Assembly: GCA_977020255.1 (NCBI GenBank)
Contig: CDROCS010002180.1
Span: 434,001-498,000, forward strand
Direction: 5' to 3'
Source of the DNA: Obrimoposthia wandeli
Taxonomy: Eukaryota
Length of the DNA: 64,000 bases
The translations under genes and the position numbers were made by a program. This document shows positions 13,570 to 37,057 of this stretch, piece by piece. The first letter of the stretch is position 1; each line of letters starts with the position of its first letter. The notes below the pieces were generated by a model. That model searched no databases and had not been told where the DNA came from. It worked only from the letters and a program-made list of their open reading frames with translations.

Positions 13570-13900
13570 TGTAACATAGATCCTCAGACGGAGGGCCCCA
13601 ACGTGAGTTCTATAGAAGCAGGACTTGTAAATGTTTGTGGCCTACTTGTGTTATGCTTGCCTATCTCAATTTGTATCTGAAGTTTATTTATGGTTAGGTG
13701 TTGTGAAATGTGTGAAGAGCTGTGTATATGAATATTGCAGAATTCCCTTAGTGTGGTGTTGTGTGTAGAGTAGTTAACAACTACTTGCTTGTAAGGGTTC
13801 GGTTTGGTACAATACGGTTTAATGTAGGATATCTTTATTTCTAAACACACGACTTTACGTTTTGACCTGTTCTAAAAACAGCAATACTAATTCTAGTTAT
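13570..13900 (+). mobile_element. 5' part of a putative LTR interrupted by the Polinton (continues 29165-29182)
   Basis: Starts TGTAAC at 13570; beyond the Polinton the sequence resumes and ends CTAACA followed by AG-TGG (PBS-like). Confidence 0.5.
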
Positions 13901-14478
13901 AAGTGTAAAGTGTCGGTTCTAAAACAATAGCACACAAAGCCCTCCCCCTCCCCGAACAAGGAACGAGGAACAAAGCACATCTGGAATTCGCTTAGTCATG
14001 CAGATGTGCTTTGTTCCTCGTTCCTTGTTCGGGGGTGAGGGCTTTGTGTGCTATTGTCTTTGAACCGACACTTTACGTTTTCAATCCTGATTGGTCTTAT
14101 GTGTCATTTACAATTATGTAGGTTAATATTCTGTAACATTAAGTATATAGTTCAAAAATTTAAAAATTTAAAAAATTTTAATTCAAAATTAAAAAATTAA
14201 ATATGGAAATTAAAAAATTAAATATGGAAATTAAAAAATTAAATATGGAAATTAAAAAATTAAAATTTTAATTCAAAAATTAAATATGAAAATTAAAACA
14301 TTAAAATTTTAAAAATAACATTTTGAAATTAAACACAATTGACCGTCCCAAATTTTTATTTGCAACTATTTAATTTACTTAGTACGGCAACCTCATTCCA
14401 GGAGTTAGACTGCCCCGCATAACCGGACAGCTATCGCAGTTTTTATCTTAAGAAACGTTATTGTTTATAGTAGGAGTT
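13901..14478 (+). repeat. left TIR of Polinton, with terminal hairpin 13905-14076 and A-rich tandem array ~14150-14320
   Basis: Reverse complement of ~28562-29154 with scattered mismatches; lacks the terminal AGAG. Confidence 0.92.
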
Positions 14479-14533
14479 TATATTTATATAATGAAGAAAG
14501 CAAAGTAACATCGATAAATATATATTAGTACAA

Positions 14534-15187
14534 TTATAAGCGAACTTGTCCATCAGTAATTTTCCAGATTGGTTTATGAAGACCTGTACAGTTGATTTTG
14601 TATCCCTGTATTGAAATGACGATCATCCATTTGAGTCCAGTTTCCATATTGTCAACATTAAAGTCGTGATCTCGCTTGAAAAGATTAGGATCAGCTCGAA
14701 TTATTATATGATTCCCAACTATAATGTTGAGATGCATCGACGCGAAAGTTGTGTTAAGATCATCAATATCTGATGGATTTAATCTATGTATCTTGAAATC
14801 GTATTTTGACTTATTCAGAGCCACCGGAAACATGAATCCATATATGATTGGAGTCTTCAAAAAATTCATTTGCCAGTTATAAAACATAACCGGCTTGGTT
14901 TACTTCAAATCGTTAGACTCAAATATTACACCTGATGGTCTATTGTTGATGAACGGTTTCTTATGTTTGAGTGTAGAAACTATATCATCAATAAAGAGAT
15001 CCTCATTTGTTGCTTGCTTCTCAATCTTGATAGTCTTGGATAGTTTGTTGTTGTTGCTTGTCATAGTTTGCTTCTTTGGTTTTGATATAAAAACTACATC
15101 ATCATCATCGGTATCCACATCTGTGTCTGTAAGCCTTGTTGTTGGTGACTTCTCGAACTTAAGAGATTTAGTTTGTTTAGAGTTCAT
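14534..15187 (-). pseudogene. Polinton leftward gene (~217 aa): acidic/Lys-rich N-terminus plus globular C-terminal domain, one in-frame TAA
   Basis: ORFs 14900-15187 and 14534-14887 share a frame and are separated only by TAA at 14900-14902 (..ESNDLK*TKPVMFY..). Confidence 0.7.
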
Positions 15188-15189
15188 AT

Positions 15190-15313
15190 CAAAATAATGA
15201 ATTCTATACCAAAAGTGGTAGCTTATATATATATCATCATACTCGATTCTGATTGGATAATCTTTAGCTTAAAAATTTTATATATAGATTGGGTTATTTC
15301 CATTAATTCAATC
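15190..15313. promoter_or_regulatory. divergent promoter between leftward gene and TBP-like gene
   Basis: TATATATA runs at ~15224-15233 and ~15279-15286, each ~35-45 nt from an ATG; ATTGGATAAT at 15252-15261 and a second ATTGG at ~15288. Confidence 0.55.
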
Positions 15314-15806
15314 ATGAATCTTGCAAATATTAATTATAAAGGTAAAGTTAAAGGAGACATCAGTCACTTACCCTACAAAGCCGGGAAACCATGTCAGTAC
15401 GTGCACAGGTGTAAGGATTATACCCTTATAATCTTCCGTTCAGGTATGTTTTTATGTTAGTTAGTTAGTTAGTTAATTATTAGGAGCATGCATGATAATG
15501 GGTTGCAAGAAACCTATTACTACAACTATGCTCAAGTGTCCATTTAGAATAAAGATTGATCGTATTCAATCAGTAACGGTTACTGTCGATTTAGGTAAGA
15601 AGGTGAACCTATACAAGTTGTCTCAAAAGTGTGGAGCTGCATGCATGTTCGAACCTGAGTTGTTTCCTGCTTTGAGGTTTACAAAACACAATCTTCTGTG
15701 CGTCAACATATTTGCAAGCGGGAAAGTGGTCATACTCGGTCTCAAGGATTTGGATTATAACTTTGATGTGACTTTGATAATAACTGATATTTTACTTTTG
15801 ATATAA
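15314..15806 (+). CDS. TATA-box-binding protein (TBP)-like protein, 150 aa, join(15314-15443,15484-15806)
   Basis: Spliced product has both TBP repeats: TLIIFRSGACMIMGCK (cf. TALIFSSGKMVCTGAK) and FEPELFPAL...VNIFASGKVVILGLK (cf. YEPELFPGL...LIFVSGKVVLTGAK); the 40-bp GTATGT...TTAG intron restores the frame. Confidence 0.92.
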
Positions 15807-15848
15807 ACAATAAATTTTAGTTGAATTTTTATTCTTACATGATTTGAA

Positions 15849-16748
15849 ATGCTAGTTGATTATATACTTCATTATACAACTGTTGATGATGTTTTAGTTA
15901 GACGAAAAGTAGGTTATTCTAGAATGAAAGTTTTACACTGGAAATATAGACGTGAAAGTGAAAGATTAAGATCATTAATTATAAATTTTAAAGGGAAACA
16001 ATCTGTAAATGATTTAGCTAAAGCCGGATTTTATAAACATGATGATGATTCAACCGATAAAGTAAAATGTATATACTGCCAAGGTGCGTTATCCGAATGG
16101 GAATGGTATCTTAAACCAATGAAGCAACATATGAAATTTTTTCCTACATGTCCATTTCTTTTAAAGTTAAATGTTTCAAATGGACCAATAATTGAAACTA
16201 TGGACAAGAAAATCGATTTTGATACATCACCATTGATTGGAAAAGTACATGTATCAGATATTGATATAAAATTACCTGATATATGCTATTCAAAATGTTT
16301 AGGACCCTATAATGAGGCTAATGTTATTGAGAAAATCGAAACAGATTGTATAATTGAATATCCTTTGACTATTGAGAAATTCGATATGTTGATGGATACA
16401 AACCAAATCAGATATTTGAAAAGGTTTTTCACAAAAGATAGAATAAAATCTGTTTTAAAATATAAAATGATACGATATGGTGAATACAATTCACTATTTG
16501 AATTGCTTTGTGATTTATCTAATTTAGAAATGAAACCTGAAAAACAATATATAAATATACTTTCATACATTTTAAAGGAACCCGAATGTGTAGTATGTTT
16601 AAATAATCATATTGAAGTAGTATTTCTCCCTTGTGGACATGTAAATACATGTATATCATGTTCTAGAATGTTACATTCATGTCCAGTATGCAGATGTCTG
16701 ATCGAACGGAGAGTAAGAAATGTAAAATTTCATGGTATAAACAATTGA
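15849..16748 (+). CDS. iap: inhibitor of apoptosis (IAP): one BIR domain plus C-terminal RING, 299 aa, intact
   Basis: BIR: LAKAGFY..DKVKCIYCQGALSEW..PMKQHMKFFPTCPF; RING: CVVCLNNHIEVVFLPCGHVNTCISCSRMLHSCPVCR. Confidence 0.95.
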   Translation: MLVDYILHYTTVDDVLVRRKVGYSRMKVLHWKYRRESERLRSLIINFKGKQSVNDLAKAGFYKHDDDSTDKVKCIYCQGALSEWEWYLKPMKQHMKFFPTCPFLLKLNVSNGPIIETMDKKIDFDTSPLIGKVHVSDIDIKLPDICYSKCLGPYNEANVIEKIETDCIIEYPLTIEKFDMLMDTNQIRYLKRFFTKDRIKSVLKYKMIRYGEYNSLFELLCDLSNLEMKPEKQYINILSYILKEPECVVCLNNHIEVVFLPCGHVNTCISCSRMLHSCPVCRCLIERRVRNVKFHGINN

Positions 16749-16766
16749 AATTTATGATTTATATAA

Positions 16767-17033
16767 ATGGATGAAAACAATAAATTAGTTGATGATGCAG
16801 TCGAGGAAATTATAAACGGAACAATAAATGGAGTTCAATACTTTTCTAGTTTTGATGGACTTTCTCGTAATAATATAAAGGAAATTGTTTGCACCCATGT
16901 CTATAGAGATATCAAACGGATAAAGGATTTTGAAATATTCGTTCAAATTAATCGTTCAAACATGATGTATATAACCTTTTCTGCGTCAATTTTTAATTCT
17001 CTGTTGTTGTATATATTAATAAAACGTATATAA
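16767..17033 (+). CDS. hypothetical Polinton protein, 88 aa
   Basis: ATG-initiated ORF filling the gap between IAP and ATPase; TATAAACAAT 31 nt upstream. Confidence 0.6.
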   Translation: MDENNKLVDDAVEEIINGTINGVQYFSSFDGLSRNNIKEIVCTHVYRDIKRIKDFEIFVQINRSNMMYITFSASIFNSLLLYILIKRI

Positions 17034-17063
17034 ACAATCGTTTCTTTTGATTTATTATTATTG

Positions 17064-17711
17064 ATGATGATAAAACTTAAAAATAACGCGGTTTACCAAA
17101 TAGTAGGACCTAGTGGGAGTGGGAAAACACATTTTGTAACTAAATTACTTCAAAATAAAAACATGTTTGATCAAAAGTTTGGTAGAATATACTGGCATTA
17201 CGGAGGTGTAGGTGAATCTGGTCTAACACGAACAGAATTAGGTAAATTGAAGGGTATTCATTTTATTAATGGTTTTGATAATAAATGGTCTGAGAGGTTA
17301 AATTCAGGAGATGTCATTGTAATTGATGACTTGTATGATGAAGCGAATAAAGAGTCGGGTTTTAATAACCTGTTTACCAAAATAGCTAGACATATAAATG
17401 TAACAGTGATTTTTATCACTCAAAATCTCTTTCATCAAGGCGGTCAACACCGTACTCGGAATTTAAATGTACATTATCTAGTATTATTTAAAAATCCGCG
17501 AGATCAAACGGTTATCGACTTTGTTGCCCGTCAAGCTTTCCCTTGCAATAAGCAATATTTGATTGACGCATTTCAAGATGCTACAACTAACCCTCATGGA
17601 TACTTGTTTTTAGATTTTACACAGGAATGTCCAGACGATTTACGCGTGAGAACCGATATTTTCAATAATGATTTTGTATATAAACAAAAGAAAAGCCTAT
17701 CTACTTGTTAA
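17064..17711 (+). CDS. FtsK/A32-like genome packaging ATPase
   Basis: Walker A GPSGSGKT, Walker B VIVIDD, ARH..VTVIFITQNLF, Polinton-typical HGYLFLDF; intact. Confidence 0.95.
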   Translation: MMIKLKNNAVYQIVGPSGSGKTHFVTKLLQNKNMFDQKFGRIYWHYGGVGESGLTRTELGKLKGIHFINGFDNKWSERLNSGDVIVIDDLYDEANKESGFNNLFTKIARHINVTVIFITQNLFHQGGQHRTRNLNVHYLVLFKNPRDQTVIDFVARQAFPCNKQYLIDAFQDATTNPHGYLFLDFTQECPDDLRVRTDIFNNDFVYKQKKSLSTC

Positions 17712-17713
17712 TC

Positions 17714-18025
17714 ATGTCATTTATGAAAGAAACAATGCCTAGTGGAGTTGGACCTAAATGGAGACCGGGTGATAAATTACACGCTAATGATAACAAATTG
17801 ATGCTAAAGAAGAATGCTCATATTAAAAATCTTATTAAATCAGTGCTTCATCAGCGTAAAGTAGTCGATGAATCATTAAAGAAATCGGTAAAGACAGTAA
17901 AGAGAAAACCTGTAAAAAAGAAACCATTAAAGAAGAAACCTGTTAAGAAAGCAGTTGGAAAGTCGGTTAAGAAGTCGGATAAAAAGCGTGTAAATAAACT
18001 AGTTGGTAAATGGATTAAACTATAA
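17714..18025 (+). CDS. Lys-rich basic protein, putative DNA-condensing core protein
   Basis: KRKPVKKKPLKKKPVKKAVGKSVKKSDKK tract; lies in the virion module; function is inference. Confidence 0.7.
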   Translation: MSFMKETMPSGVGPKWRPGDKLHANDNKLMLKKNAHIKNLIKSVLHQRKVVDESLKKSVKTVKRKPVKKKPLKKKPVKKAVGKSVKKSDKKRVNKLVGKWIKL

Positions 18026-18056
18026 ACAATATTGCAAATAGTTTAATTCATTAAAT

Positions 18057-18385
18057 ATGTTATCAAAATCTATACTTCCCTACTTTCAGGCTTTAATCAA
18101 GGCTCCAAGCATATATAGACCACGTATACTCAAGTCATTTCCACCCTTTGTTATTGATAAGTTGGTTGAAGTTTTGTTTAATATTACAAAAGGTACTGTA
18201 AAAATCGGTAATCATAAACATAACCTTAGAAAACATCAAAAAGCTTTACTTGATTTAGTGAATACTAAAAGTAAAACTGGTAAACGTAGAGTAATTCTAA
18301 AACAAAAAGGTGGTTTTATCGGTGCATTAATACCTATAATTGCTATTTAGTATCTCCTTTGATTGCAAAATTGATAAACTCATAA
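18057..18385 (+). CDS. conserved Polinton small virion protein with QKGG|F motif and hydrophobic C-terminal helix (apparent 1-nt frameshift near 18346)
   Basis: ..KRRVILKQKGGFIGALIPIIA; shifted frame continues LVSPLIAKLINS* to 18385. Confidence 0.75.
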
Positions 18386-18436
18386 ACAAAATGGGTAATA
18401 ACATACCAAACATCGATTTTAAATTCACTTGTTGCA

Positions 18437-19458
18437 ATGGAAACGATATGGTACGATCCCGAAAACCCAGCTGGGTACAGCAGCATTACAAAAGTCAATC
18501 GAGTCAAAAGAAAACTCAGAAATGGCTGAGCAATCAGCTAGCATACAGTCTAAATAAGCCAATGAAGCGGAAGTTCCCGACTCGAGCATACAGAACAAGC
18601 GGTCCTAACGATTTATGGCAGGCCGATTTGATGGAAATGATACCATATGCAAGTATCAATGACGGTAACAAGTATATTTTAACATGTATTGACGTGTTTA
18701 CAAGGTATGCGCGTGCATTACCTGTAAAATCTAAATCAGGTAAGGATATAGAGGCTGCTCTAAGTATAATGATTGATAAAACTGTCCCCATACATGTGCA
18801 AACCGATAAGGGTAAAGAGTTTTACAACAAAAATGTAGGTAGTTTATTAAAAAAATTAAATATTGAACATTACTCTGTAGTTTCACAATTCAAAGCTGCC
18901 CTAGTTGAAAGGTTTAATAGAACATTGAGAGATCGATTAAAAATACATTTTATTGCACAAGGCAATAAAAGATGGGTTGACGTTTTACCAAAAGTAATGA
19001 CTTCATACAATCACAGTAAGCATAGAGGTTTAGACGGATTGAGACCTGTCGATATTAATGATAAAAATGCAATGGAAATTTGGTTGAGTCGTAATCAAGT
19101 CGATAAAGTTAATAAACCCAAACATAAGACTGGTGATTATGTTCGGATATCAAAGTTTAGTGGTAGCCCCTTTATTAAAAACTTTGATCCGAATTGGAGT
19201 GATGAAGTGTTTAGGATAGAGAAAATAGACAAACGTGCAAATCCTGTAATGTACTCTATAGTTGATGATGACTGTAATGTAATAACAGGGAAATTTTATG
19301 AACCTGAATTACAAGTAATTGATAAACCTACACTTTTCCGTATCCAATAAGTCGTAAAATCTAAAGGCGGTGGTAAGAATAAACAATATCTCGTAAAGTG
19401 GCATGGATATTCTGAATCAACATGGATCAAAGCAAGCCAGATAGAGACTTCTATATGA
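18437..19458 (+). pseudogene. retroviral-like (c-int) DDE integrase with C-terminal chromodomain; frameshift ~18495 and premature TAA 19348-19350
   Basis: METIWYDPENPAGYSS N-terminus in another frame; DDE triad WQADL / QTDKG / VERFNRTL; after the stop VVKSKGGGKNKQYLVKWHGYSESTWI (chromodomain). Confidence 0.93.
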
Positions 19459-20585
19459 TTTTACCGAGTAATAGTTGTCCGAAAACTCAACCTAATAATA
19501 TGGCTTCATTATTCACTGTAGATTGGGAGAATCCAATTACGTTAAATGGTAAATGGGAGGCGGCATTAACTGAATTTACGTATACAAACACTCCTGTTAT
19601 TTTAAATAAGGGCAGTGAAATTAATTATTCTATTAAATTCTCCAATCAACAGACTGATCAAATATCTTTATCAGTAATTCATACTCAAGTAGAAGTAGAA
19701 AAGAAAGAACCGCAATTGCATGGTGATAAATCAGAACCAAAAGTTATTAAAAAGACAATTAATAAAATATCAAAACTCACCGTCACGTCTAAAGATAAGA
19801 TTGCAAAGCTTTCTATTTCCTTAATCACAGTTGGTGTAGGTATTGATAAAAAGGATAATGTTGTACTAATAAAATCCGTCAACAACAAAAAATTATATAT
19901 CAAGATGGATGCTGACGCTAAAAATGAATTAGGATTCATTTTCAATACATTAACTTCAGAAAGTTTCGAGTCTGATGATAAAGGAGTTTTACAAGGATCA
20001 ACATCTATCAGACCTGATTGCAGTGCACATAATTTACAATATATGCATTATAAAACCGGTTCATACAACAAGAAAACTGTATTTACAGAAGATTTAAATA
20101 ATAATAATGTAAATGCATTAGTAGCATACATTAAATCTAAATGCGACGTTATATTTAAAAGATTTTATATGGATGATAATGATAAGCTAATAAAATTTGT
20201 ATTAAAGAATGGAATTGAGCATATTGGATTTGATCAACGTTTAATGCATGTATTAGGGTTAGATAAATCACGATTTACGGGCAACGGGTCAGGTAAACCT
20301 CGATTAAATTACGAGTTTGATCACATGTATTCTAGTCTGTGTGAACCTGTAAACGTTGGAGGTCAAATGATACCCTTATTAAAATCTATATGGTTAGATA
20401 AAAATAAAGCACCAGGAGACACGGTTAATATCGCAATATACAGACCCATGTATATCCCTTTAGCATCAAATGTAATCTCAAACATTGAAATTAATATTAG
20501 AAACGATGCAGGTGTTCCAATAAGTTTTTCCAACAATGCAAAAGTATCCCTTACCATACATGTCCGTTGTATAGATCAGGTATAA
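19422..20585 (+). CDS. minor capsid protein (penton), intact, 387 aa
   Basis: Polinton-typical N-terminus DFYMILPSNS..NNMASLFTVDWENPITLNGKWEAALTEFTY and C-terminal MYIPL..IEINIRNDAG..VSLTIH. Confidence 0.88.
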   Translation: MDQSKPDRDFYMILPSNSCPKTQPNNMASLFTVDWENPITLNGKWEAALTEFTYTNTPVILNKGSEINYSIKFSNQQTDQISLSVIHTQVEVEKKEPQLHGDKSEPKVIKKTINKISKLTVTSKDKIAKLSISLITVGVGIDKKDNVVLIKSVNNKKLYIKMDADAKNELGFIFNTLTSESFESDDKGVLQGSTSIRPDCSAHNLQYMHYKTGSYNKKTVFTEDLNNNNVNALVAYIKSKCDVIFKRFYMDDNDKLIKFVLKNGIEHIGFDQRLMHVLGLDKSRFTGNGSGKPRLNYEFDHMYSSLCEPVNVGGQMIPLLKSIWLDKNKAPGDTVNIAIYRPMYIPLASNVISNIEINIRNDAGVPISFSNNAKVSLTIHVRCIDQV

Positions 20586-20621
20586 ACAATCTGTATTCAA
20601 AAATAGTTGTGCATTACAGTT

Positions 20622-21028
20622 ATGAATATAATTGAGACATTTAGTGGGCCTCAACAAGGTGGTGAATTACCATATTTTGTAGGTAAACAGTACGGTTCGG
20701 GATGGTTGAAAACATTGGGGCGGTTAGCATTCCCTATACTGAAAAGATTAGGCCGTGTTGGAGTTAAAACAGTTCAAGATGTAATAATGAACAACAAATC
20801 TGTGTTACCAATGCTTAAACAACATGCACTAGGGAAGTTGCCGGAGCCATACCGGAGGCTAAGGAAGCTTTTGGTACAGTTGTTAAAATTATTAAAAATC
20901 GACGTAAACGTAAAGCAAGTGAAGCAGCACAAATGGTTGAACCCGAAACTAAAAAGCAAGAGGGTAGTGGTAGAAAGAAAGCATCTAATATAAACAAACG
21001 AAGAAAACAAGGTACAATATTTGCTTAA
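20622..21028 (+). CDS. Polinton core/cement protein with QQGG and QYGSG motifs and amphipathic helix (pVI-like by inference); frameshift ~20832
   Basis: GPQQGGELPYFVGKQYGSGWLKTLGRLAFPILKRLG; shifted frame gives ..KQEGSGRKK..KRRKQGTIFA* ending just before the hexon ATG. Confidence 0.78.
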
Positions 21029-21030
21029 TA

Positions 21031-22253
21031 ATGGCTTGTGGTAAATCTGAATTATGTATTTTTGATCGAGCTTTGCCTCAGGTAGTTGTAAATAATGGTA
21101 GCTTTGAAGATATATATCCAACAAACAATATTACCGGAACAAGAACATCAGAGATTCTGTTTAAAATCCAAGGTTCAGATATTGAGAACTTAGATTTGAA
21201 TGATACCTTGTTGTTTGTGAAAATTAAAGTAACGAAAACTGATGGTACAGATATAGCTGTTACAGATTATGTGGTCCCATCAAATTTCTTGATGCATTCC
21301 CTATTTAAAAGCATAGATATATCAATGAATAATACTGTAGTAGAAACCCATCCTCAATATGCACAAAAAGCTATGATTGAAACCATACTAAACTATAGCA
21401 CAGACACTAAAGACACTTGTTTGTCGAGTATAGGTTATGATGATACTGAAGATAATCGTAAAGGTTGGGCTGATCGCTCAAAAGAAATTGACTTGTGTGG
21501 GACTCTTCGATCTGATATTTTTGAGCAACCAAAGTATCTCTTACCTGGTGTGTCTATCATGGTAAGACTTGTACCTAATAAATCTATGTTTAGTCTGAAC
21601 TACGGAACGACTCCATCGCGAATCATATTTATTGAAGCTAAACTTAAAGTCAGAAGAGTCAGAGTTGAGAATGATGTTTTAATGGGACATAATATTGGTC
21701 TTGAATCTAGGAATGCTGTATATCCCTATACTCGCACAAAGCTAATGTATCATACCTTAGCCATCGGTTCTACGAGTTTTTACAAGGATCAAGTGTTTGA
21801 TGATGAACAATTGCCTAAATTTGTGTTGATTACGTTGCAAGCAGGTGAAAAACTTATCGGTAATGGTGCTACAGACTCTTCAACATTCGATCATTCTAAT
21901 GTTAACACTATCAGTCTTGCTAGAAACAGTGATTTTAACGAATCTTACAGTACAAACTTTGAAACAGGTGAAACCACCTTTGCATATGTCCAATCTATCA
22001 TTAGAAATATGGGTAATTTGGATAAGAATATAAACAATGGCGTATCACTGGATGAATTCAAAACCAAATATCCATTTTCACGTTTGTTTTAGCCCCTGAC
22101 TTTGATATCACGCAAAACCAATTAGCAAAACAGGGTAATTTACGCCTTGACATCAAGTTTCACAAGTCATTAACAGTCCCAACAAACGTACTGATTTAAG
22201 GGATTTTTGATTCTGAGTTTGAAATAACTAAAGGCCGACGTGTGATTGTATGA
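21031..22253 (+). pseudogene. double jelly-roll major capsid protein (hexon); frameshift ~22078 and in-frame TAA near 22198
   Basis: MACGKSELCIF..LDLNDTLLFVKIKV, SDIFEQPKYLLPGV; shifted frame completes FTFVLAPDF..QGNLRLDIKF..VLI*GIFDSEFEITKGRRVIV*. Confidence 0.92.
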
Positions 22254-22610
22254 AGTGAGTTTTTTAATTTATGTTTTAAGATTTTATTAACAACAAGTAC
22301 TGTTCAGGTGAATGAAATAACTAGTTTGCTGCTCGGACCGCGATTTAAGGGTGTATACCCGTTGGAAATAATCCTAACATTAACGCCTGGTGGATATATT
22401 GTCAATACACATACCTCAAATCTTACTGGAGACCACTGGATTGCGTTATTCGTGAGACGGAATTCTGTACATGTGTATGACCCTCTTGGAGTATACTATC
22501 CGGGAAAACTTATCAAGCATGTAGAGTCTCAAGGAAAACATGTATATTACAACAAAATTCGTTCTCAAAACCCACTGACTACTAATTGCGGTCCACTATG
22601 TATCTTATAA
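22250..22610 (+). CDS. adenain-like cysteine protease, join(22250-22254,22298-22610)
   Basis: Catalytic H (GDHW), D (YDPLG), Q/C (SQ..TTNCG); a 43-bp GTGAGT...TTAAC..AAG intron gives MNTVQVNEI; ATG overlaps the hexon stop (ATGA); TAA at 22610 may be premature. Confidence 0.88.
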
Positions 22611-23100
22611 TTGTATGATCAAACTATATAAATGTCAAACATTTTAATTTGTGTTGATTGGTAATAAAATTTGTATTCAAAATCGTATTTGTTTTATAAA
22701 TAGCTTCAACTACCCAGTCGAAATTTTAAAAAATTTGAGTTTTGATAAATTAAAAAATAGATTTAAAATCTACTAATTAAGAGAAAATTAATGGTGTGAA
22801 TTATTTTTAAAAATTCATAGTCTAACGGTATGAATATCGGTTATGAAAAATATCATAATTGATTGACCGTAATTAACCTTTATGATAACGTGTGTAGCAA
22901 CTAGGGAATAAAGGGTCTTTATGACACATTCCTAGTTTGTAATAATGAAAGTACACACGTGTGTGTGTGCATCTAGGGCAGAAACTACACTGACTGTGAA
23001 CCATATATAAACAATCAGTGTAGATGCATTCATCAATTTTATCACAATTATCAAAAGTAAGTATTTTGATTTTATTTTAATTTTATTATTTTTTTTTTAG

Positions 23101-23472
23101 ATGTCGAAAATTATTTTCGCGTACAATGCTAAGAAAAGATGGACGATGAAGCCTGTAGTCGATATGGATGATGATGATGTCGACTTGGATGCGACACCAC
23201 AACAAAAAGGTAATTTTTTGATTAGTATTTTTAATTTAATTTTCATTTAGCAATGCCCAGTGTCACAACACCACCAATATCGATTGCGCCATGGATACCA
23301 ACAATATATGATGATGATGCTACTAGGAAAAGAAGGAAACAAAAGAAGCCGAAAACCTCTGATGATGATGATGATGCTACTAGGAAAAGAAGGAAACAAA
23401 AGAAGCCGACAATTTCTGATGATGATGATGATAATAAGAAAAATCCAAAAGTTTTTTTATCTTCTAAGAAAT
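23101..23472 (+). CDS. spliced Polinton gene, join(23101-23209,23251->23472), with acidic/basic 19-aa repeats; runs into the gap; upstream intron 23057-23100
   Basis: GTAAGT..TTAG and GTAATT..TTAG introns keep frame; DDDATRKRRKQKKP(K/T) repeated with 57-bp period. Confidence 0.7.
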
Positions 23473-24010
23473 NNNNNNNNNNNNNNNNNNNNNNNNNNNN
23501 NNNNNNNNNNNNNNNNNNNNNNNNNNNNNNNNNNNNNNNNNNNNNNNNNNNNNNNNNNNNNNNNNNNNNNNNNNNNNNNNNNNNNNNNNNNNNNNNNNNN
23601 NNNNNNNNNNNNNNNNNNNNNNNNNNNNNNNNNNNNNNNNNNNNNNNNNNNNNNNNNNNNNNNNNNNNNNNNNNNNNNNNNNNNNNNNNNNNNNNNNNNN
23701 NNNNNNNNNNNNNNNNNNNNNNNNNNNNNNNNNNNNNNNNNNNNNNNNNNNNNNNNNNNNNNNNNNNNNNNNNNNNNNNNNNNNNNNNNNNNNNNNNNNN
23801 NNNNNNNNNNNNNNNNNNNNNNNNNNNNNNNNNNNNNNNNNNNNNNNNNNNNNNNNNNNNNNNNNNNNNNNNNNNNNNNNNNNNNNNNNNNNNNNNNNNN
23901 NNNNNNNNNNNNNNNNNNNNNNNNNNNNNNNNNNNNNNNNNNNNNNNNNNNNNNNNNNNNNNNNNNNNNNNNNNNNNNNNNNNNNNNNNNNNNNNNNNNN
24001 NNNNNNNNNN
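23473..24010. other. assembly gap (538 N)
   Basis: Run of N. Confidence 1.
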
Positions 24011-24070
24011 ATTCTAATTATTTAAATAAACGTTTTGGGGATATAAATGATATAAAATCAAATTCTCCCG

Positions 24071-24132
24071 ACTGCCATAGCTGCCCGGTAACGCGGGGCA
24101 GTCTAACTCCTGGAATGGGGTCGCATAGTAAG
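24071..24132 (+). promoter_or_regulatory. internal copy of a ~62-bp GC-rich TIR cassette, 29 nt downstream of a TATA-like box
   Basis: Aligns with 28600-28662 and the reverse complement of ~14378-14440; TATAAATG at 24042. Confidence 0.75.
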
Positions 24133-24330
24133 TTAACTAAATCAAGAAGTTACCTCTTACTTTTTAAACCAGGGACACCTGTTGGGTCACCTGTTAATTC
24201 GTTAGAAAATTTCAATGTAAATGAGATATACTCGGGTTTTGAAAATATCCCGTTTAAAAAATATTTTAATCAACTAAAGAAAGTTAAAAATCAAAATATT
24301 GATTTAAGTAAACTGAAAACAGAAGGTAAG

Positions 24331-24621
24331 ATGGGTAAACGATTTCGTCAGAAGCTGCGTAGATTGAGAAAACAACCAGCAGGTATAACAATATTTGCAA
24401 ATTTATTAGGGTCTTGCAAACCCATTAATATTAGTCCAGGTCTGAAAATTACAGATCTGGCAAATAAATTATATGAAGTCTTCGGGACTGACCAAATTTA
24501 TTTTTATCGTAATGGCATGCCCTTTGAAGGGGAAGCTACTATTGGCAATGTTTTACATGAGGGGGCTATTATCCATGTATACCCTAAACTTCGTGGAGGA
24601 AGTAACTTATGTACATTGTAA
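24331..24621 (+). CDS. ubiquitin-like domain ending LRGG (24589-24600), in frame with downstream pPolB
   Basis: ITIFANLLGSCKPINISPGLKITDLANKLYEVFGTDQIYFYRNGMPFEGEATIGNVLHEGAIIHVYPKLRGG aligns by eye with ubiquitin; true start uncertain because the frame is open back to the gap. Confidence 0.8.
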   Translation: MGKRFRQKLRRLRKQPAGITIFANLLGSCKPINISPGLKITDLANKLYEVFGTDQIYFYRNGMPFEGEATIGNVLHEGAIIHVYPKLRGGSNLCTL

Positions 24622-27600
24622 AAGTATTGCATAAACGTTAATCATGGAATAGAATGTCATAGTGTAATGCTTAAATATTATAAATTTAAAAGCGGTTTTA
24701 TTTGTCCACATTGTGATGTGTTATATTGTATTGTCTATCAAACATTTTATAATGATCATAAGGATCATCTGACGTATTTTAAATCTAAAAAGTCGGCATA
24801 CAAACGTAAAGTAATGAGTGTACCAACAATAGACAACAATAAAATAACAAAAACTAATAATTTTGATGAAGAGTTTGATGTGGTAGACTCGTGGGAACCG
24901 GATAGTGTTGTAGAAATTGATACTAATCCTGAAGTTGTAGAAATTATTGAGCCTTTAACCCCTAATGACATCTTAAATAATAATAATATTGATGAACTTA
25001 TAGATCAGGACGAGTTTATAACAGAAAATGATTTTTTCGACTCGCTCCTAGCTATTACGGATGATGACTTTGATAATATTGTTACAATTAATTCAGATAA
25101 TACATTAACTTTTAACAATCAAATAGGAGGTGCAATTCAATCAAACCTTGTTTTTGATGTTAGTGGGTTAAACATGCTTAAACTATACATTAACGATACT
25201 ATGCTAACTGAACTTACTATCAGTATAGATGTGTTTGGTCCCTGTAAAATACAGTTTGGTGTTGAAACCGAATTTGTCAATAATGAGGGTCAGCATAAAA
25301 CATGGCATGTAAGCTGTAAAGCAAATATTTTTGAACAAGATTTTATCACTACAAGAACAGTTGAGCTCAACAATAAAATTGAAATTTATAAGGATATGAG
25401 TTCGGGATGGTCAGTATTTAAAATTCTGTTGGTATCCTTTAAATTTACTGCACTTTAAAACGTAGCAGGATCATCATTTATAAAAACCCCGGTTGCGCTT
25501 GCTAAAACACTATCTATAGTGAACGTAAATAATACTGATGATCAGTGTTTTAAATACGCTGTTCTCAGTATCTTACACTATAAAGATTTCAATCGAACAG
25601 ACAAAGAGTTGAAAACTATAATGAATATTTAAATGAACTAATATGCGAGCTTGGTTCTATGAGGATAGACTGCATCAAGGTGTTTGAAAAACTCAATAAT
25701 TTTGCGATAACAGTATTTTCCTATAAACCTACAAAGGTAAAGCCTCATAGTAGTCATCTAGTGTTTAAAAACCTAGATGTTAACGTTATTTATAGAACGA
25801 GTCTTAGGCAGTGCAAAAAAGTAGTAAACTTGTTGCTGTTGAAACAGAGCGGTAATTATCACTATACAGGGAATACAAAACTGAATAGACTTTTATATAC
25901 TCAAAAATATAATGTGCGTCTCTTTTCGGTTTTCGAACCACGATTTCATATGACAAACACAGGGCACATTGTAATATTAATACAGATTTAACAACCTTGT
26001 TTACAATGCCTAAAGATATCAAGTGTCAGTTTTCCGACTATTCTAAATCTATTGCGCCACCATTTGTTGTATATGCCGACTTTGAGTCAATACTCGAGCC
26101 GCATAATACTTTCAAACACATTCATAAACCAATATCTATAGGGATGATTTTGAAAAACAACACTAATAATTCAATACAATATTTTAGTTATTACGGTCTG
26201 CAGTGTGCTAAAAACTTTGTAGATAAATTAACTGAGTTGATAAATGGTGAAGTGGCAGATTTTTGGGTAAATAGTATTAATGTTCCTATGGTTTTTATTA
26301 ATAATGACATGTTGAACTTTAGAGATTGCACTAATTGCTATCTTTGTAGAAAATTAAACGATCGTATGGTTAGAGATCATGATCATATCACGGGTAAATA
26401 CTTGGGTGCGGCATGCAACAAATGCAATTTAAGTCGCAAGTTTGCAAAGAGACCAGTTTTACCTGTGGTGTTTCATAACCTTATGGGTTATGATATACAT
26501 CTTATTCTAAAATATGCTGACTTGAAAGGTAAATACTTTTCAATTATCCCTAAATCAAGTGAAACGTTCATGTCCCTCCGTATAGAGATGAAGAGGGGGA
26601 CATTGAAATTCATTGATTCATACCTTTTTACAACGTCAAGTCTTGAATCCTTAGTTTCATACTTGTCAAGTTGTCCTTATACTACACAATACCTAAACCC
26701 TAATATTGCAACAAGTAAGGCGGTATTTCCATATGAATATATTAGTGGTGTTGATAGGCTTGTGGAGAGGCAGTTACCTGCTAAATCTGAGTTTCCTTCT
26801 CGAGTCACTGATCAACAATATAATGAAGCCCTAATGATGTGGCCGTATTAGGGTGTAATACTATTAAAGACTACATGCTTGAGTATATGAAACTTGAGGT
26901 GTACCTGTTATGTGATGTTTTTGAGGCCTTCAGACAGAAAGTAAGGGATGATGATAATCTAGAGGCGCTCAATTTTTTTAGTATCCCGGTCTCAGTTGGG
27001 CTAGCGCATTAAAAACGTTAGAGTATGACGTGGATTTATTGCATGATCCCGAAATGTATAACATGTTTGAGGCAGGGATACGGGGAGAGATGACTTTCAT
27101 CAAAAAACATTACGTTAAAACAACAGATGAAACATTCCTCCTATACATTGACATAAACAACCTATATGGCTGGGCCATGAGTCAACCGTTACCACATACA
27201 GATTTTACATGGGTATATGACGGTTTTGAAGCGATAATTGAGCTTATAACTGAGAGGGATATTCACGGTAATATGCAGGACTTAAGTCTTAAAGAACATG
27301 GATACTTGATGGAAATTGATTTACACATACCCATCAGTATTCATGATAAACGTGATGACTTACCGATTGCGCCTAATAGAGAAATCCCTCCCGGCTCAAA
27401 AGCTTCAAAGCTGTTGATGACCCATGAGGATAAAAATAATTACATCATACACTCACAACTACTACAATTTTACTTGTTTCTGGGCACAGAAATTAAACAA
27501 GTGCATAGAGCAATAAAGTTTCATCAAGCTCCTATATTTAAAACATATATTTATATCAATAGCCGGAAACGGCATGTAGATAAAGATGTTCTCTTAAAAC

Positions 27601-28094
27601 AAATGATTAAAGATCAAAGGTTAGATACTAGTAATTACCCGCTCACACATGAGTTATTTAACGATACTCATCGAAATGTTATTGGAAAGTTTAAAGATGA
27701 AAGCAAAAGGACAGTGCTTTATGATGAATGGGTATTTCTGAAACCTAAATGCTACTCATTGAAAACCAGTATGAGGGCTAAGGGTATCTCCCTTAAACAA
27801 ACCGAAATCAGACATGAGCATTACATCAAGTGTTATGTTGATGATGAAATTATAACTGCCGGTCAGACACGTATTTTATCTCGTAATCATCAATTATTTA
27901 CAATGTATAATTATAAAATTGCGTTAAGGTGTTATGACGATAAAAGGGTTTGGATTGAGAAAATCAAATCCGTCGCATATGGACACTATAGTCTAAGACA
28001 GGTGTATAAAATCTGGGGTAACCTCTTGAAAGTATTGACTTATATCCTTCTTATTTTTATTGTAATAAGCAGAATATTGTATGTATCTTTTTAA
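24622..28094 (+). pseudogene. polB: protein-primed family B DNA polymerase (terminal-protein region, OTU-like segment, exonuclease, EndoVII-like insert, polymerase); fragmented, motifs B and C deleted
   Basis: SSGWS, NTDDQCFKYAV, VVYADFESIL (ExoI), RDHDHITGKYLGAACNKCN, FHNLMGYD (ExoII), YIDINNLYGWAM (motif A), IGKFKDE, DDKR..AYGHY; several stops and frameshifts. Confidence 0.95.
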
Positions 28095-28211
28095 ATGCGA
28101 TAGTATGTATATATTTTTAATGCTATAGTATGTATATATTTTTATTGATGTTTATTATTATTAATACATTGTATGTATCATAACCATGTCTTGACTTCCT
28201 ACTAGCTACTC

Positions 28212-28270
28212 ATTGGATAATTTCGTTGGATAATTTCATTGGATAATTTTAACAAATTCTCTATAAATAT
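28212..28270 (+). promoter_or_regulatory. three 13-bp repeats containing TTGGATAATTT followed by TATAAATA
   Basis: TTGGATAATTT at 28213, 28226 and 28239; TATAAATA at 28262, 42 nt before ATG 28304. Confidence 0.65.
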
Positions 28271-28303
28271 ATACACACTTCAACCAATTTCTTATTATTT
28301 CAA

Positions 28304-28543
28304 ATGACTATTTTTAAATAAAAATTACAAGCTCTCCATGATAACCTGAGCCCTACCTTGATGGCACAGTATACTGAAAAATACTTAAACTTATTTGTTG
28401 CACCAGAACATTTTGTCTCAAGGATTGAAGAACTTTATATGTATCATCTGTTTAACGGAGACTTTAAACCTAAAGTTGCAACAATCATTAAAATAGAAGA
28501 AGAAGAAAGCATGGATTGTGTTAATGAATATAATTATGTATAA
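28304..28543 (+). pseudogene. small Polinton ORF (~79 codons) with TAA at codon 6
   Basis: ATG 28304 is in frame with ORF 28358-28543; preceded by a TATA box. Confidence 0.45.
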
Positions 28544-28561
28544 ACATAGACTTTTTTACTA

Positions 28562-29158
28562 GACTCCTAATATAAACAAAAACGTTTTTAAAGATAAAAA
28601 CTGCGATAGCTTTCCGGTTATGCAGGGCAGTCTAACTCCTGGAATGAGGTCGCAGTACTAAGTAAATTAAATAGTTGCAAATAAAAAGTTGGGACAGTCA
28701 ATTGGGTTTAATTTCAAATGTTTAATTTTTTAATTTAAAATTTTTAAATTGTAATTCTTAAATTGTGAATTCTAAATTAAAATTTTTTAATTTAATTTTT
28801 AATTTCTAAATTTTTTAATCTAGTTTTTTAATTTCTAAATGTTTTATAATTTAAATTTAATTTTTAATTTCTAAATATTTTTTTTTTATTTTCTAAATTT
28901 TTAATTTTTGAACTATATACTTAATGCTTACATAATATTAACCTACATAATTGTAAATGACACATAAGACCAATCAGGATTGAAAACGTAAAGTGTCGGT
29001 TCAAAAACAATAGCACACAAAGCCCTCCCCCCGAACAAGGAACGAGGAACAAAGCACATCTGAATGACTAAGCGAATTCCAGATGTGCTTTGTTCCTTGT
29101 TCCTTGTTCGGGGGGCTTAGTATGCTATTGTTTTAGAACCGACACTTTACACTTCTCT
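28562..29158 (-). repeat. right TIR of Polinton with terminal hairpin 28988-29150
   Basis: Reverse complement of the left TIR; ends CTCT followed by TSD AGTTAT. Confidence 0.92.
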
Positions 29159-29164
29159 AGTTAT

Positions 29165-32989: not shown

Positions 32990-33426
32990 ATGGACGGCTA
33001 TTTACGAGTTTTTGAAGAAGGAAATATTTTAAAATCAAAAATATTTTGGGGTGTTCTTCAGGATTATTATTTCACATTTTTTCCGGGTATGTAAAATAGA
33101 TTTCCACATGTATAATGTTGTATAATGCCAGATAAAAAATACAGAGATCCTGAATTCGTCATAAATCTAATGGGCTGCACAGTTATACCACGTTTTGACG
33201 AGAATTATAATCTTAATATGATTGAGGTACGAAGTAGATTGTTAAGCGTATATAGCATGGACTTGTACATACATTTCGAGGAGCAGATTACATATTTTCA
33301 TCATAATTGCTAGGTAATCAATGCTCGTGGAGCGCACACTCTATTGACGCCGAATGAAGCGAAAGATTTCGACAGATGGGCCAATGTTTTGAAAAACACT
33401 GTGGAGAAATACAACGGCGAATACGG
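32990..33426 (+). CDS. PH-domain-encoding exons 32990-33086, 33132-33226, 33314-33426 (start of host gene 2)
   Basis: Spliced: MDGYLRVFEEGNILKSKIFWGVLQDYYFTFFPDKKYRDPEFVINLMGCTVIPRFDENYNLNMIEVINARGAHTLLTPNEAKDFDRWANVLKNTV, the PH pattern with terminal-helix Trp; phases consistent. Confidence 0.85.
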
Positions 33427-33799
33427 GTTTGTACTGATTTTAGATTCAGAAGTTTTAATACCTAATACAGCACAAATACAAGTCAGTCTGCGATAATGAG
33501 TGAGTGATGTTTATCGTGTTACAGAAAACCCTAAAGTTTCTTGTTGATCTAAACCGGTACTCGTGTATCAACACAAATACACTGAAAACTGCCTGACACG
33601 TAAATATAGGCAGTAGCCCGAGAACATAGAAACTCAAGGGGGAATTACCAGTTGGAATATGCTGAAAACAAATGCCCTATTTTTTTTGTGCAAGGTCATC
33701 TTTGTTCATTAAGTACAGTTAACAATTTAAAGTACGATATGTACGTCATCTTTTCCAGCTGGGATTCAACAAAAACAATATTTTACTAAGTAATAAAAT

Positions 33800-35275: not shown

Positions 35276-37057
35276 AAGGTCGCCGATCGTCAGGAATGAG
35301 CTCAAATCACCAAAATTCAGAAACCATGCCGGTTCCTAAACCCCGACATACTATAAACAGGGTAACTCACAACTTTATTGTTCATCTTTAAATCCGAATC
35401 TTCTCTTAGGATCAGCCCGATGGATACTATAAACAAGGTGAGACTTTAGTTTTCCTCGCATTTATAATGTTGCTTTCCCATATTAGTCATCTTTCTTTTT
35501 TTCTCGATGCACAACTTTGGATTAATAAGTAATTATGGATGTTCTTCAGACATTCTCTAAACTTCAACAAAATACGTTCAGAACTGTCGAATATATTTAA
35601 ACTAACACGAACAGGAACATAGACAGCTCTGGAACCAAATACAATTATTTGAAATTTGAAATAATCTACAAAAACCATTCTGAACTTATCATTACAATTA
35701 ATTTCCAGGTTGAATAAAACCGAATAAAGTACGCAATATTAAAAAAACTACATTACCTATAATATTTGAAGTTATTATGCTAATCCAAAAATGATTATTA
35801 TTTAAAGAGCAGTATGTACTTCTAATCTCTGAAGCATGATGACAAAACAAAGTTCTTTTAGTTAGAAAATCGCCTATTTAAAATATATTGTGCAAAATTA
35901 TATAATCTGTTGCCACTTCATCTGCGAAATTGTAAAAATATTGATACCTTTGAAAATATTTATGTTCAAGAAGTTTTATAGTGAAGTAAACAGAGTTAAG
36001 CGCTTGTGAAGAGATTTTATTTGCTAAATTCTAGTGCCATATTAAATAATTTTTTAATGTTTTATGTTCAAACACAAAGTTTCTACTACATTCAATAGTA
36101 GCCTTCTAAACGCGACTGGACATTGGAATTTTAGTTTTTGTTGCATGGTAGTGCCGACTTTCAGTTAAAATATCTCCTACGGTTCGTAGTGGATTTTGTT
36201 GATATTTGGAAAATTTATTTGCAAAGTTTTACTTAAATCCCAAAGTTGTGTTTCAAGGAAGTTTAATTTATTGAAACTCGGCTGCGAAATATGCTGTTCC
36301 TATCTATTTCGAATCCCCCTTAGGTTCAGCTAAATTTATTTAATTGTAATTTTATTTGAATATATATATATATATATTCTCTTTTTACATGGTAGATACG
36401 TTCCACAGAACACCATGTAAAAAACATAGACTCCATAGTAAAATAGGGATACGTTCCATAACTTCCAAAAAACGTGCAGAAAAGCAGTTTTTAATTCTAA
36501 ATAGAAAACAAAAATTTTTAAACAAAAATAAAGTTAGAAACAGTACAGTAATTATTCACCTGTAAGGGTATTCATTAAAACATGTTTTTGAGAGAGACCG
36601 ACACCGAATCACTTATAGATGCATTATTTAAAAGCTTGGAAAGGTACTATTATAGGTGAAGCGTGAAATTTTCGGTGACCGGACACCCTTATAGGTCGGA
36701 CCCCTTATAGATGAATAATTACTGTACTTCTATACTTCTATTTTTAATGAAAATAAAATTAATATTAAATTCAAATTTTACTTTTAAACAAAAAAATAGG
36801 AACACATTGTAAAAGAAATAAACTTATATGAAATGCAAAGGTTTATAGCGATTCGTCGCAACTTGATAATAAGCGCATCTGTTTGCGAAGAGCTGGTGTA
36901 AAATCACTATCATTGCTAGAAATAACTAGAATATCAGACAAACTGGGATCTTTGATAATGACTGAACGAAAGTAAAAAACGTATAAAATAGATAGCAAAA
37001 AAAGATAAAAAGGAATTTTGTTGACCGTGTTATTTCAAAACCGTGTAAAAAGAGAAT

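Follow-up and report, generated by a model that had tools for sequence, protein, structure and literature searches.

In the portions of the literature drawn on here, no introns were found in 134 intact vertebrate Polinton elements (PMC8097293), and the core genes of nematode Mavericks, the protease included, are described as intronless, introns having arrived with captured host genes (10.1101/2022.07.12.499685). The same portions report spliceosomal introns inside the Polinton-like DNA of dinoflagellate Maverick-polinton-like proviruses, as introners that are young, repeated and mostly secondary (PMC11957031). Host-type introns that ORF callers miss are likewise described in Punuivirus, an integrated giant virus of an alga whose latency-gene introns are validated by RNA (10.64898/2026.10.09.758095).

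We analysed a window of 64,000 nucleotides from Obrimoposthia wandeli (contig CDROCS010002180.1, positions 434,001 to 498,000), in which a sequence-only reading had proposed four short introns within Polinton genes. All four GT..AG segments were confirmed at the proposed positions and lengths (Table 1), and all of them lie in a 15.3-kb element, of which this genome holds at least 150 close copies. The element is a Polinton/Maverick by its polymerase, integrase, ATPase, protease, capsid and terminal repeats. As in animal Polintons of the adintovirus type, to the extent that PMC8097293 and PMC8502044 are used here, these are a pPolB, an rve integrase, an ATPase, an adenain-type protease and capsids, enclosed by terminal inverted repeats and by a 6-bp target-site duplication. 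The retrovirus-like integrase (PF00665, E 2.3e-13) and the packaging ATPase (PF04665, E 1.9e-7) were readily recognized; the double jelly-roll major capsid protein had an Atlas feature score of 0.97 to major capsid clusters (PF16903, E 0.004). An ORF at 19416-20585 occupies the usual position of the minor capsid protein and its ends are conserved in relatives, with no family hit above the cut-off. The polymerase matched PF03175 on one fragment (E 1.6e-5), short of the curated threshold, since the window copy of the gene is broken. Indeed, the integrase, major capsid, protease and polymerase genes of this copy all carry frameshifts or stops. The arms of the terminal inverted repeat are 85% identical over 611 compared columns, the left end being shorter by 4 nt. 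Scans of viral contigs returned no relatives in one set and six distant loci, none close, in another.

Unlike the vertebrate elements of PMC8097293, as described there, this element has a split protease and a split polymerase gene, at odds with intronless core genes as a descriptive trait, and a TBP-like gene and an IAP are present in it as well. It shares spliceosomal introns with the mobile Mavericks of nematodes and with the dinoflagellate proviruses; unlike those of the latter, as far as that account is used here, its introns are old, cannot be aligned with one another and keep their positions throughout a clade. As compared with what is reported of Punuivirus, it is a 15-kb element in which a virion-maturation gene is predicted to be split.

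Table 1. Features of the element and its surroundings (positions in the window).
Feature	Position	Strand	Remark
Left target-site duplication, 6-bp	13895..13900	+	Hexamer identical to 29159-29164
Polinton/Maverick element	13901..29158	.	Window copy decayed
Left terminal inverted repeat and outer palindrome	13901..14480	+	
TBP-like gene exon 1, 43 codons + 1 nt	15314..15443	+	38-59% identical to counterpart in other families
Predicted intron 1, 40 nt, GTATGT..TTAG, phase 1	15444..15483	+	Inside Gly codon
TBP-like gene exon 2	15484..15806	+	Pfam TBP, E 8e-13
Major capsid gene	21031..22253	+	Stop overlaps protease start codon (read in sequence)
Coding micro-exon of the protease: start codon and 2 further nt	22250..22254	+	ATG(A/G)A in 16/18 intron-bearing loci
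Predicted intron 2, 43 nt, GTGAGT..CAAG, phase 2	22255..22297	+	Codon 2 of adenain-type protease, after ATG-AA
Protease exon 2	22298..22610	+	Contains His, Asp, Gln and Cys motifs; lacks Met; early stop in window copy
Rival out-of-frame CAG acceptor	22305..22307	+	10 nt downstream of the intron 2 acceptor
TATAAACA promoter-like motif	23006..23013	+	Upstream of polymerase gene
Predicted intron 3, 44 nt, GTAAGT..TTAG	23057..23100	+	Polymerase 5' UTR; acceptor abuts ATG
Polymerase first coding exon, 36 codons + 1 nt, acidic	23101..23209	+	
Predicted intron 4, 41 nt, GTAATT..TTAG, phase 1	23210..23250	+	Polymerase codon 37
Polymerase main exon	23251..28094	+	Broken in window copy, partly masked
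Right terminal inverted repeat and outer palindrome	28560..29158	-	
Right target-site duplication, 6-bp	29159..29164	+	Pairs with left hexamer
Host intron candidate, 45 nt	33087..33131	+	GT..AG, site scores host-like
Host intron candidate, 48 nt	35362..35409	+	GT..AG, site scores host-like

We consider it highly probable, at close to nine chances in ten, that the four segments are true spliceosomal introns carried by a mobile lineage of Polintons, which the host spliceosome is predicted to excise. This reading is preferred because position and phase are conserved, intronless homologues are collinear and intron lengths drift freely. Homologues with continuous ORFs across the segments, which the sequence-only reading would have counted against introns, do exist but lack the segment itself and therefore support the introns.

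A set of 72 host introns served to train splice-site matrices, which together with host AT content were used to score all 1713 GT..AG pairs of 33-56 nt that the element contains on either strand. Three of the four segments ranked 1, 4 and 5 (2, 4 and 11 on sites alone), better than expected by chance. The host introns were obtained with a spliced aligner (95 predictions, of which 23 were duplicates or failed filters on flank score, AT, donor and frame); running BLASTP on candidate joins gave mainly false positives and was abandoned. In an earlier scoring the top four reached 16.1-20.5 against shuffle means of 12.4-14.4 (30 shuffles), but its AT term had been chosen with the viral introns in view and the host-trained rerun is preferred. 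The proposed match to the host's short-intron class held: the element introns fall within the 35-55 nt of short host introns (median 44, n = 16), and GT..AG ends with GTRAGT-like, U2-type donors were seen across them. The two host intron candidates cited for comparison (Table 1) have GT..AG ends and host-like site scores but were not confirmed by homology, none of three exon pieces matching Pfam.

The protease gives PF00770 at E 0.037 when searched alone; it has 933 homologues, many of them PF00770 members, and the His, Asp, Gln and Cys columns are invariant. Its intron lies at the identical base and phase in families A-E of the genome and in six metagenome loci, at 42-68% protein identity, so that the position is conserved in related Polintons. 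Among 11 metagenome loci (39-52% identity) it is present in L211-213, L215, L219 and L220 and absent in L214, L216 and L221, two loci being cut off. The interiors are unalignable among nine lineages (mean z 0.19, 0/36 pairs above 3), and the sequence similarity typical of introners is thus not seen in these protease introns. The distance from the spliced Met to the FxGV motif is 17 in all nine relatives tested, and its mode in database homologues is 16-17. Among copies of the element, the intron is present at all 56 intact-flanked family-A loci, with GT and AG each kept in 54/56. Non-triplet indels shared among copies occur in it (20/56 and 3/56), and none occurs in 150 nt of the capsid exon. 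The donor ranks 2 (3 on sites alone) only if joined to the CAG 10 nt on; with the acceptor of Table 1 it ranks 183 (415 on sites alone) among the 1713 pairs, so that this acceptor is supported by homology and not by its motif score. In family A the acceptor is AAG, a form shared by four of the 72 host acceptors, and its score is much lower than that of the rival CAG. The TTAAC branch-like site of the sequence-only reading is not supported: it is TTAAT in a subfamily, is not kept in other families and is indistinct from the AT-rich background. A candidate internal protease promoter at 22029 was rejected, its position not being conserved.

It is conceivable, if rather unlikely, that the introns, besides being real, serve as a control point: the virion-maturation protease would be rationed by regulated or leaky splicing of its micro-exon, and replication would be gated by the leader introns of the polymerase. 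Unspliced RNA would read Met-Lys/Glu-stop in 16/18 loci, the protease intron is retained throughout the clade, an unproductive acceptor is the stronger one in family A, each of the four introns lies within 130 nt of a start codon, and a precedent is offered by the latency-programme introns described for the endogenous giant virus (10.64898/2026.10.09.758095, in part). However, any retained phase-2 GTRA donor makes a stop and the feature is therefore automatic; moreover, L214 and L216 lack the protease intron, family D lacks the TBP intron, and the acceptors of other families are ordinary TAG or CAG. Doubtful to a further degree is the proposal that the clade keeps its protease behind a five-base micro-exon, with splicing as the switch between quiet copies and particle maturation and with the element's TBP reading its own TATAAACA promoters.

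In the TBP-like gene, 15444-15483 was the best of 122 GT..AG pairs in spliced alignments to intronless homologues, and including the intron raised the alignment from 135 to 167 bits, and from 163 to 216 bits in a second comparison. The site is common to families A, B, C and E; the intron is absent from family D and from the 27 best database homologues. Five of 14 non-D relatives did not yield the expected junction in spliced alignment, their sites being decayed. Capture of the intron along with a host gene was rejected, since the host TBP genes bear introns elsewhere and none at the viral site. In this, and in its split core genes, the element differs from the nematode Mavericks, as far as that description is used here (10.1101/2022.07.12.499685).

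Introns 3 and 4, which the sequence-only reading had assigned to no particular gene, both belong to the polymerase gene, intron 3 lying in its 5' UTR and not in coding sequence; two core genes, protease and polymerase, are therefore affected. The main exon encodes a charged leader, in which Pfam gave no named match, a ubiquitin-like segment ending in LRGG (by eye), a Cys/His domain and pPolB, and a single frame of 1538-1549 codons was found in 3/20 chosen copies. In a copy comparison that required donor-like ends, the spliced frame was kept in 50/55 copies while the introns varied over 28-51 and 37-48 nt, in all length classes; in a phase-0 variant (L079, L081), compensating loss on both sides preserves the frame. 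The spliced frame is open for at least 200 codons in 30/55 copies, compared with one copy and none when the other frames are read. Most changes in the length of the first exon reflect slippage of triplet repeats, by which the frame is preserved even without selection. Introns 3 and 4 are argued from frame and copies, collinearity with intronless homologues covering introns 1 and 2. A drop in depth at 22900-23470 was considered as a minority cassette and rejected: the region is hypervariable and present in nearly all copies.

Could the segments be AT-rich intron lookalikes, with downstream or non-ATG starts and a TBP-like gene that is really two ORFs? GT..AG pairs abound in the element, whose AT content is 68%; moreover, an ATG directly follows intron 3, and one just past intron 4 in 42/55 copies could start the polymerase without exon 1. 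We nevertheless hold this to be very improbable. Donor, acceptor, base position and phase are kept over about 50% protein divergence, as would not be expected of spacers, whereas the interiors diverge and the lengths vary. Read unspliced, the window protease has no usable start (Met-Lys-stop): its frame lacks a Met, and in 8/9 relatives the first Met is missing or past FxGV. TBP exon 1 is needed for collinear alignment with the 27 whole homologues, and it corresponds to the part of an intronless sister protein that holds the first three strands of the TBP fold.

Flatworm spliced leaders end in AUG, and no TATA motif was found within 130 nt of the protease in family A, as might suit acceptors used for spliced-leader trans-splicing of polycistronic RNA instead of cis-splicing. 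This is scarcely credible: an AUG supplied by a leader would not be in frame with either the phase-2 acceptor of the protease or the phase-1 acceptor of the TBP-like gene, and the donors and upstream coding exons are conserved. Insertion into dead copies after integration, by introners or repair, would fit the decay of the window copy, the AG/G(T) proto-splice site at the TBP position of the intronless family and the mainly secondary introners that PMC11957031 describes, but it is already contradicted by introns in all intact-flanked family-A copies (30/30 TBP, 56/56 protease), so that they spread with the element, by the lack of any sequence common to the introns and, in four runs of one sample, by the lack of any intron-free joint (the runs are contigs, read as DNA because depth is flat across genes and spacers alike). 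An ancient origin from introners is conceivable.

Under the preferred reading of true introns, the host spliceosome would remove them from the 5' ends of the protease, polymerase and TBP-like transcripts. Host RNA polymerase II would transcribe the genes in the nucleus, starting from short promoters of the TATA type, and introns of 37-48 nt would be spliced through intron definition, like the host's minimal class. Adenovirus late transcripts are spliced from long leaders to many acceptors. Related protease and polymerase genes are thus expressed through host splicing there, as predicted here, whereas each gene of the element has its own 40-nt intron. The protease intron was probably gained once, near the base of the clade. 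For L214 and L216, a close lineage that is collinear without the intron, gain followed by loss and never having gained it are both compatible with the data (AU p 0.37); in the TBP tree gain and loss are not separated, and a tree forced to group the rows that bear the intron is not rejected (AU p 0.69). The introns may persist mainly since DNA-to-DNA copying rarely loses introns precisely, and their 5' position may also aid expression. Of the long nuclear co-evolution claimed from the sequence, long nuclear residence is consistent with one protease intron shared over a clade about 50% diverged; co-evolution with this particular host does not follow from it, the relatives outside this genome being metagenome loci.

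The core-gene introns depart from the intronless descriptions in the cited parts of PMC8097293 and 10.1101/2022.07.12.499685; Repbase or the supplements may already annotate exons. On our reading, the rule that Polinton core genes are intron-free is overturned for at least one abundant clade. Plain ORF calling damages these proteins, as had been claimed, and most of the closest public proteases seem wrongly started (29 of the best 41, by a heuristic); a split gene can also pass for a decayed one in counts of "intact" elements. Splice junctions offer copy-independent RT-PCR markers of true expression amid near-identical DNA copies, and the presence/absence pairs form a compact system in which intron gain and loss can be studied where no reverse-transcription step intervenes. 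Finally, a spliceosome-dependent protease implies nuclear transcription via host machinery, not a cytoplasmic giant-virus factory, which bears on how Polintons make particles.

Sequence comparison leads us to regard the four Polinton segments as real introns, with a probability of about 0.88. They lie in a Polinton/Maverick of family A, whose inverted repeats share 85% identity across 611 columns and which has a 6-bp target-site duplication and genes for a TBP-like protein, IAP, ATPase, integrase, capsid proteins, an adenain-type protease and pPolB. The window copy is decayed, several core genes having stops or frameshifts; at least 150 copies with ≥96% protease identity are present in the 1.35-Gb genome. 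All six GT..AG segments of the sequence-only reading, four in the Polinton and two in host sequence, were found where it had placed them. The polymerase gene varies in side and strand from family to family, and different Polinton families are frequently nested or adjacent (both at loci L121-L140). The exons beside the first host segment, which we take from their pattern to be PH-domain-like, gave no match when searched singly against Pfam.

Features of the window and of compared loci
Feature	Locus	Position	Remark
Polinton/Maverick	window	13901-29158	family A
Palindromes	window	13905-14076; 28988-29150	~170 nt, closing each terminal repeat
TBP-like gene	window	15314-15806	
Intron 1	window	15444-15483	TBP-like gene
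IAP cargo gene	window	15843-16748	BIR plus RING, no introns
Intron 2	window	22255-22297	protease
Intron 3	window	23057-23100	pPolB
Intron 4	window	23210-23250	pPolB
Third copy of inner terminal-repeat segment	window	24071-24125	within polymerase leader
Ubiquitin-like segment	window	24430-24618	read by eye
PH-domain-like host exons	window	32990-33430	presumed
Host intron candidates	window	33087-33131; 35362-35409	
Decayed DNA-transposon ORFs	window	53212-54786; 44325-45612; 51222-51680; 56490-56906	presumably hAT, Tigger/pogo, Tc1 type by appearance
TBP-like gene of distant Polinton	L222	6587-7090	full-length, two-repeat, intronless
Cys/His N-domain introns	L211	1570-1900	37-45 nt
Cys/His N-domain introns	L213	1480-1800	37-45 nt
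Cys/His N-domain introns	L214	2950-3300	37-45 nt

For an independent set of host introns, kinesin, chaperonin, proteasome and TBP loci were aligned with splicing allowed (72 of 95 predictions retained). Those of at most 60 nt (16 of the 72) span 35-55 nt with a median of 44, and the element introns match this class, as had been claimed. Matrices built from the retained introns and applied to the 1713 possible GT..AG pairs of the element ranked introns 3, 1 and 4 first, fourth and fifth. The protease donor is strong; its AAG acceptor ranks only 183 of 1713, and a rival CAG acceptor 10 nt downstream, rank 2 of 1713, is out of frame. The assembly also contains bacterial-looking contigs with hslV-type and many single-exon chaperonin genes (L158-L166). 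Short introns of Schmidtea are given as 45-85 nt, slightly above the O. wandeli class, in the available part of PMC13594981.

The protease ATG shares bases with the capsid stop, and two bases separate it from the donor; in the window copy, the frame downstream of intron 2 contains no Met. Intron-position conservation in related Polintons, a check proposed earlier, came out in favour of the intron: the identical layout recurs in four further Polinton families of the genome, at ~50-68% identity, and, among 11 close metagenome loci, in six; two others of the 11 are cut off (L217, L218). The intron is absent from the close loci L214, L216 and L221, and the more distant L222 and L223 have intronless proteases; the remaining three metagenome loci, like six from viral contigs, are too remote to be informative about it. 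Across 18 intron-bearing loci it measures 37-48 nt and is 81-95% AT, the ATG(A/G)A start being retained in 16; between intron interiors of the nine lineages compared, no similarity was found. Once spliced, the protease has 17 residues from Met to the conserved N-terminal FxGV motif in 9/9 relatives, the modal spacing among database homologues. Both flanks were present in 56 of 58 distinct family A loci, and intron 2 in all 56 (40-45 nt). Shared non-triplet indels among family A copies fall inside intron 2, with none in the unselected capsid exon; the protease exon after intron 2 had been picked for its open frame. In a capsid-plus-protease tree of 21 rows, the intron-bearing rows and L214/L216 form one clade (100/100) with the other intronless rows outside; for L214/L216, intron loss against never having gained it gave an AU p of 0.37.

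Other families with a TBP-like gene were retrieved by Pfam search of the genome. In families B, C and E the gene is interrupted in the same Gly codon and phase as by intron 1; that of family D is collinear and lacks the intron. The family D profile, unaided, selects intron 1 as the best of 122 pairs and the same site in 9 of 14 other non-D loci, the remaining five being decayed and not giving it. A profile of 26 whole database homologues also selects this site (216 vs 163 bits), its nine intron-bearing targets being taken from those successful earlier. Homologues continuous across the segments had been named as evidence against introns; such TBP-like homologues do exist (the 27 best of 43 are uninterrupted across at least 90% of the query), but in the collinear family D gene the segment itself is absent. 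The 43 homologues apparently form a Polinton-borne family. All 30 family A loci fetched carry intron 1 (39-45 nt). The intronless sister protein has a predicted fold (pLDDT 94) that matches TBP structures (E 3e-9) and would place the intron site at a turn between two strands. The TBP-like protein (window and L104), of ~150 aa, lacks the long first-repeat helix of host TBP. Inheritance of intron 1 from a host TBP gene is ruled out, because host TBP genes are continuous at that site.

Introns 3 and 4 flank a 109-nt exon whose ATG directly abuts intron 3. In 55 copies, intron 3 measures 28-51 nt, intron 4 37-48 nt and the exon 82-277 nt; the spliced frame is retained in 50 of them, triplet slippage making up much of the exon variation and the search pattern having required donor-like ends. 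A phase-0 variant offset by a compensating loss is seen in two copies. Downstream of intron 4, the spliced frame stays open for at least 200 codons in 30/55 copies, against 1 and 0 in the other two frames. Of 20 copies chosen because their frames are long, all 20 read through to the ubiquitin-like segment, 15 to the polymerase N-domain and 3 across the whole polymerase. Because this frame runs into the polymerase, introns 3 and 4 are assigned to the 5' end of pPolB. The earlier view of spliceosomal introns within Polinton genes is both supported and extended. Polymerase homologues in family C and metagenome relatives carry other short introns at their front, including that of L214, although the L214 protease is intronless. 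Further introns in the Cys/His N-domain (table; also L135, L137 and L139) vary in position by lineage. The ubiquitin-like segment precedes this domain and had no Pfam match; its LRGG end is a possible cleavage site.

Plain ORF calling does appear to damage Polinton proteins, as the sequence-only reading had argued. The best 120 of 933 protease homologues (proteins only), sorted by a heuristic on N-termini, comprised 68 cleanly started, 20 intron-like, 12 truncated and 20 other or motif-less; intron-like or truncated starts occurred in 29 of the 41 best homologues vs 3 of the 79 remaining.

In the available parts of the sources, intact vertebrate Mavericks have no reported introns, in line with Kapitonov and Jurka 2006 (PMC8097293), and nematode Maverick core genes are termed intronless, with introns in cargo only (10.1101/2022.07.12.499685). 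Partial texts likewise describe introners in dinoflagellate proviruses (PMC11957031), group I introns in PLVs (PMC12220804), a giant virus as precedent for introns (10.64898/2026.10.09.758095) and Maverick expansion in Dugesia without mention of Maverick introns (10.64898/2025.12.11.693146); PMC12721341 reports that splice sites were not found. Spliceosomal introns in Polinton genes are mentioned in none of the available portions of PMC10748475, PMC8502044, PMC11296320, PMC6431247, 10.1101/2024.03.25.586562, 10.64898/2026.10.13.758929 and 10.64898/2026.07.28.741278. The literature searched, outside subscription journals, supplements and Repbase, yielded no description of a conserved Polinton-protease intron.

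The motif TATAAACA has 11 occurrences in the element core, at 15802-23013, all of them on the + strand and none on the other. It sits 31-47 nt upstream of the start in seven genes other than pPolB, where it lies at -97, becoming -53 after removal of intron 3; it frequently overlaps the stop of the preceding gene and is found in other Polinton families too. The element's own shortened TBP is a possible reader of this motif.

These comparisons show conserved split genes whose predicted products match homologues only once spliced. Host polymerase II would transcribe the element genes in the nucleus, and the host spliceosome would excise the segments as minimal introns. That the introns serve as a regulatory switch is a bolder, rival proposal. 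A benefit of the introns to expression is plausible, judged from their 5' position, but for each intron there are lineages without it; HUSH silences intronless mobile elements in human cells according to the available part of PMC8770142. The introns may have been acquired within the mobile lineage, and would persist in the element because DNA-to-DNA replication gives little chance of precise loss.
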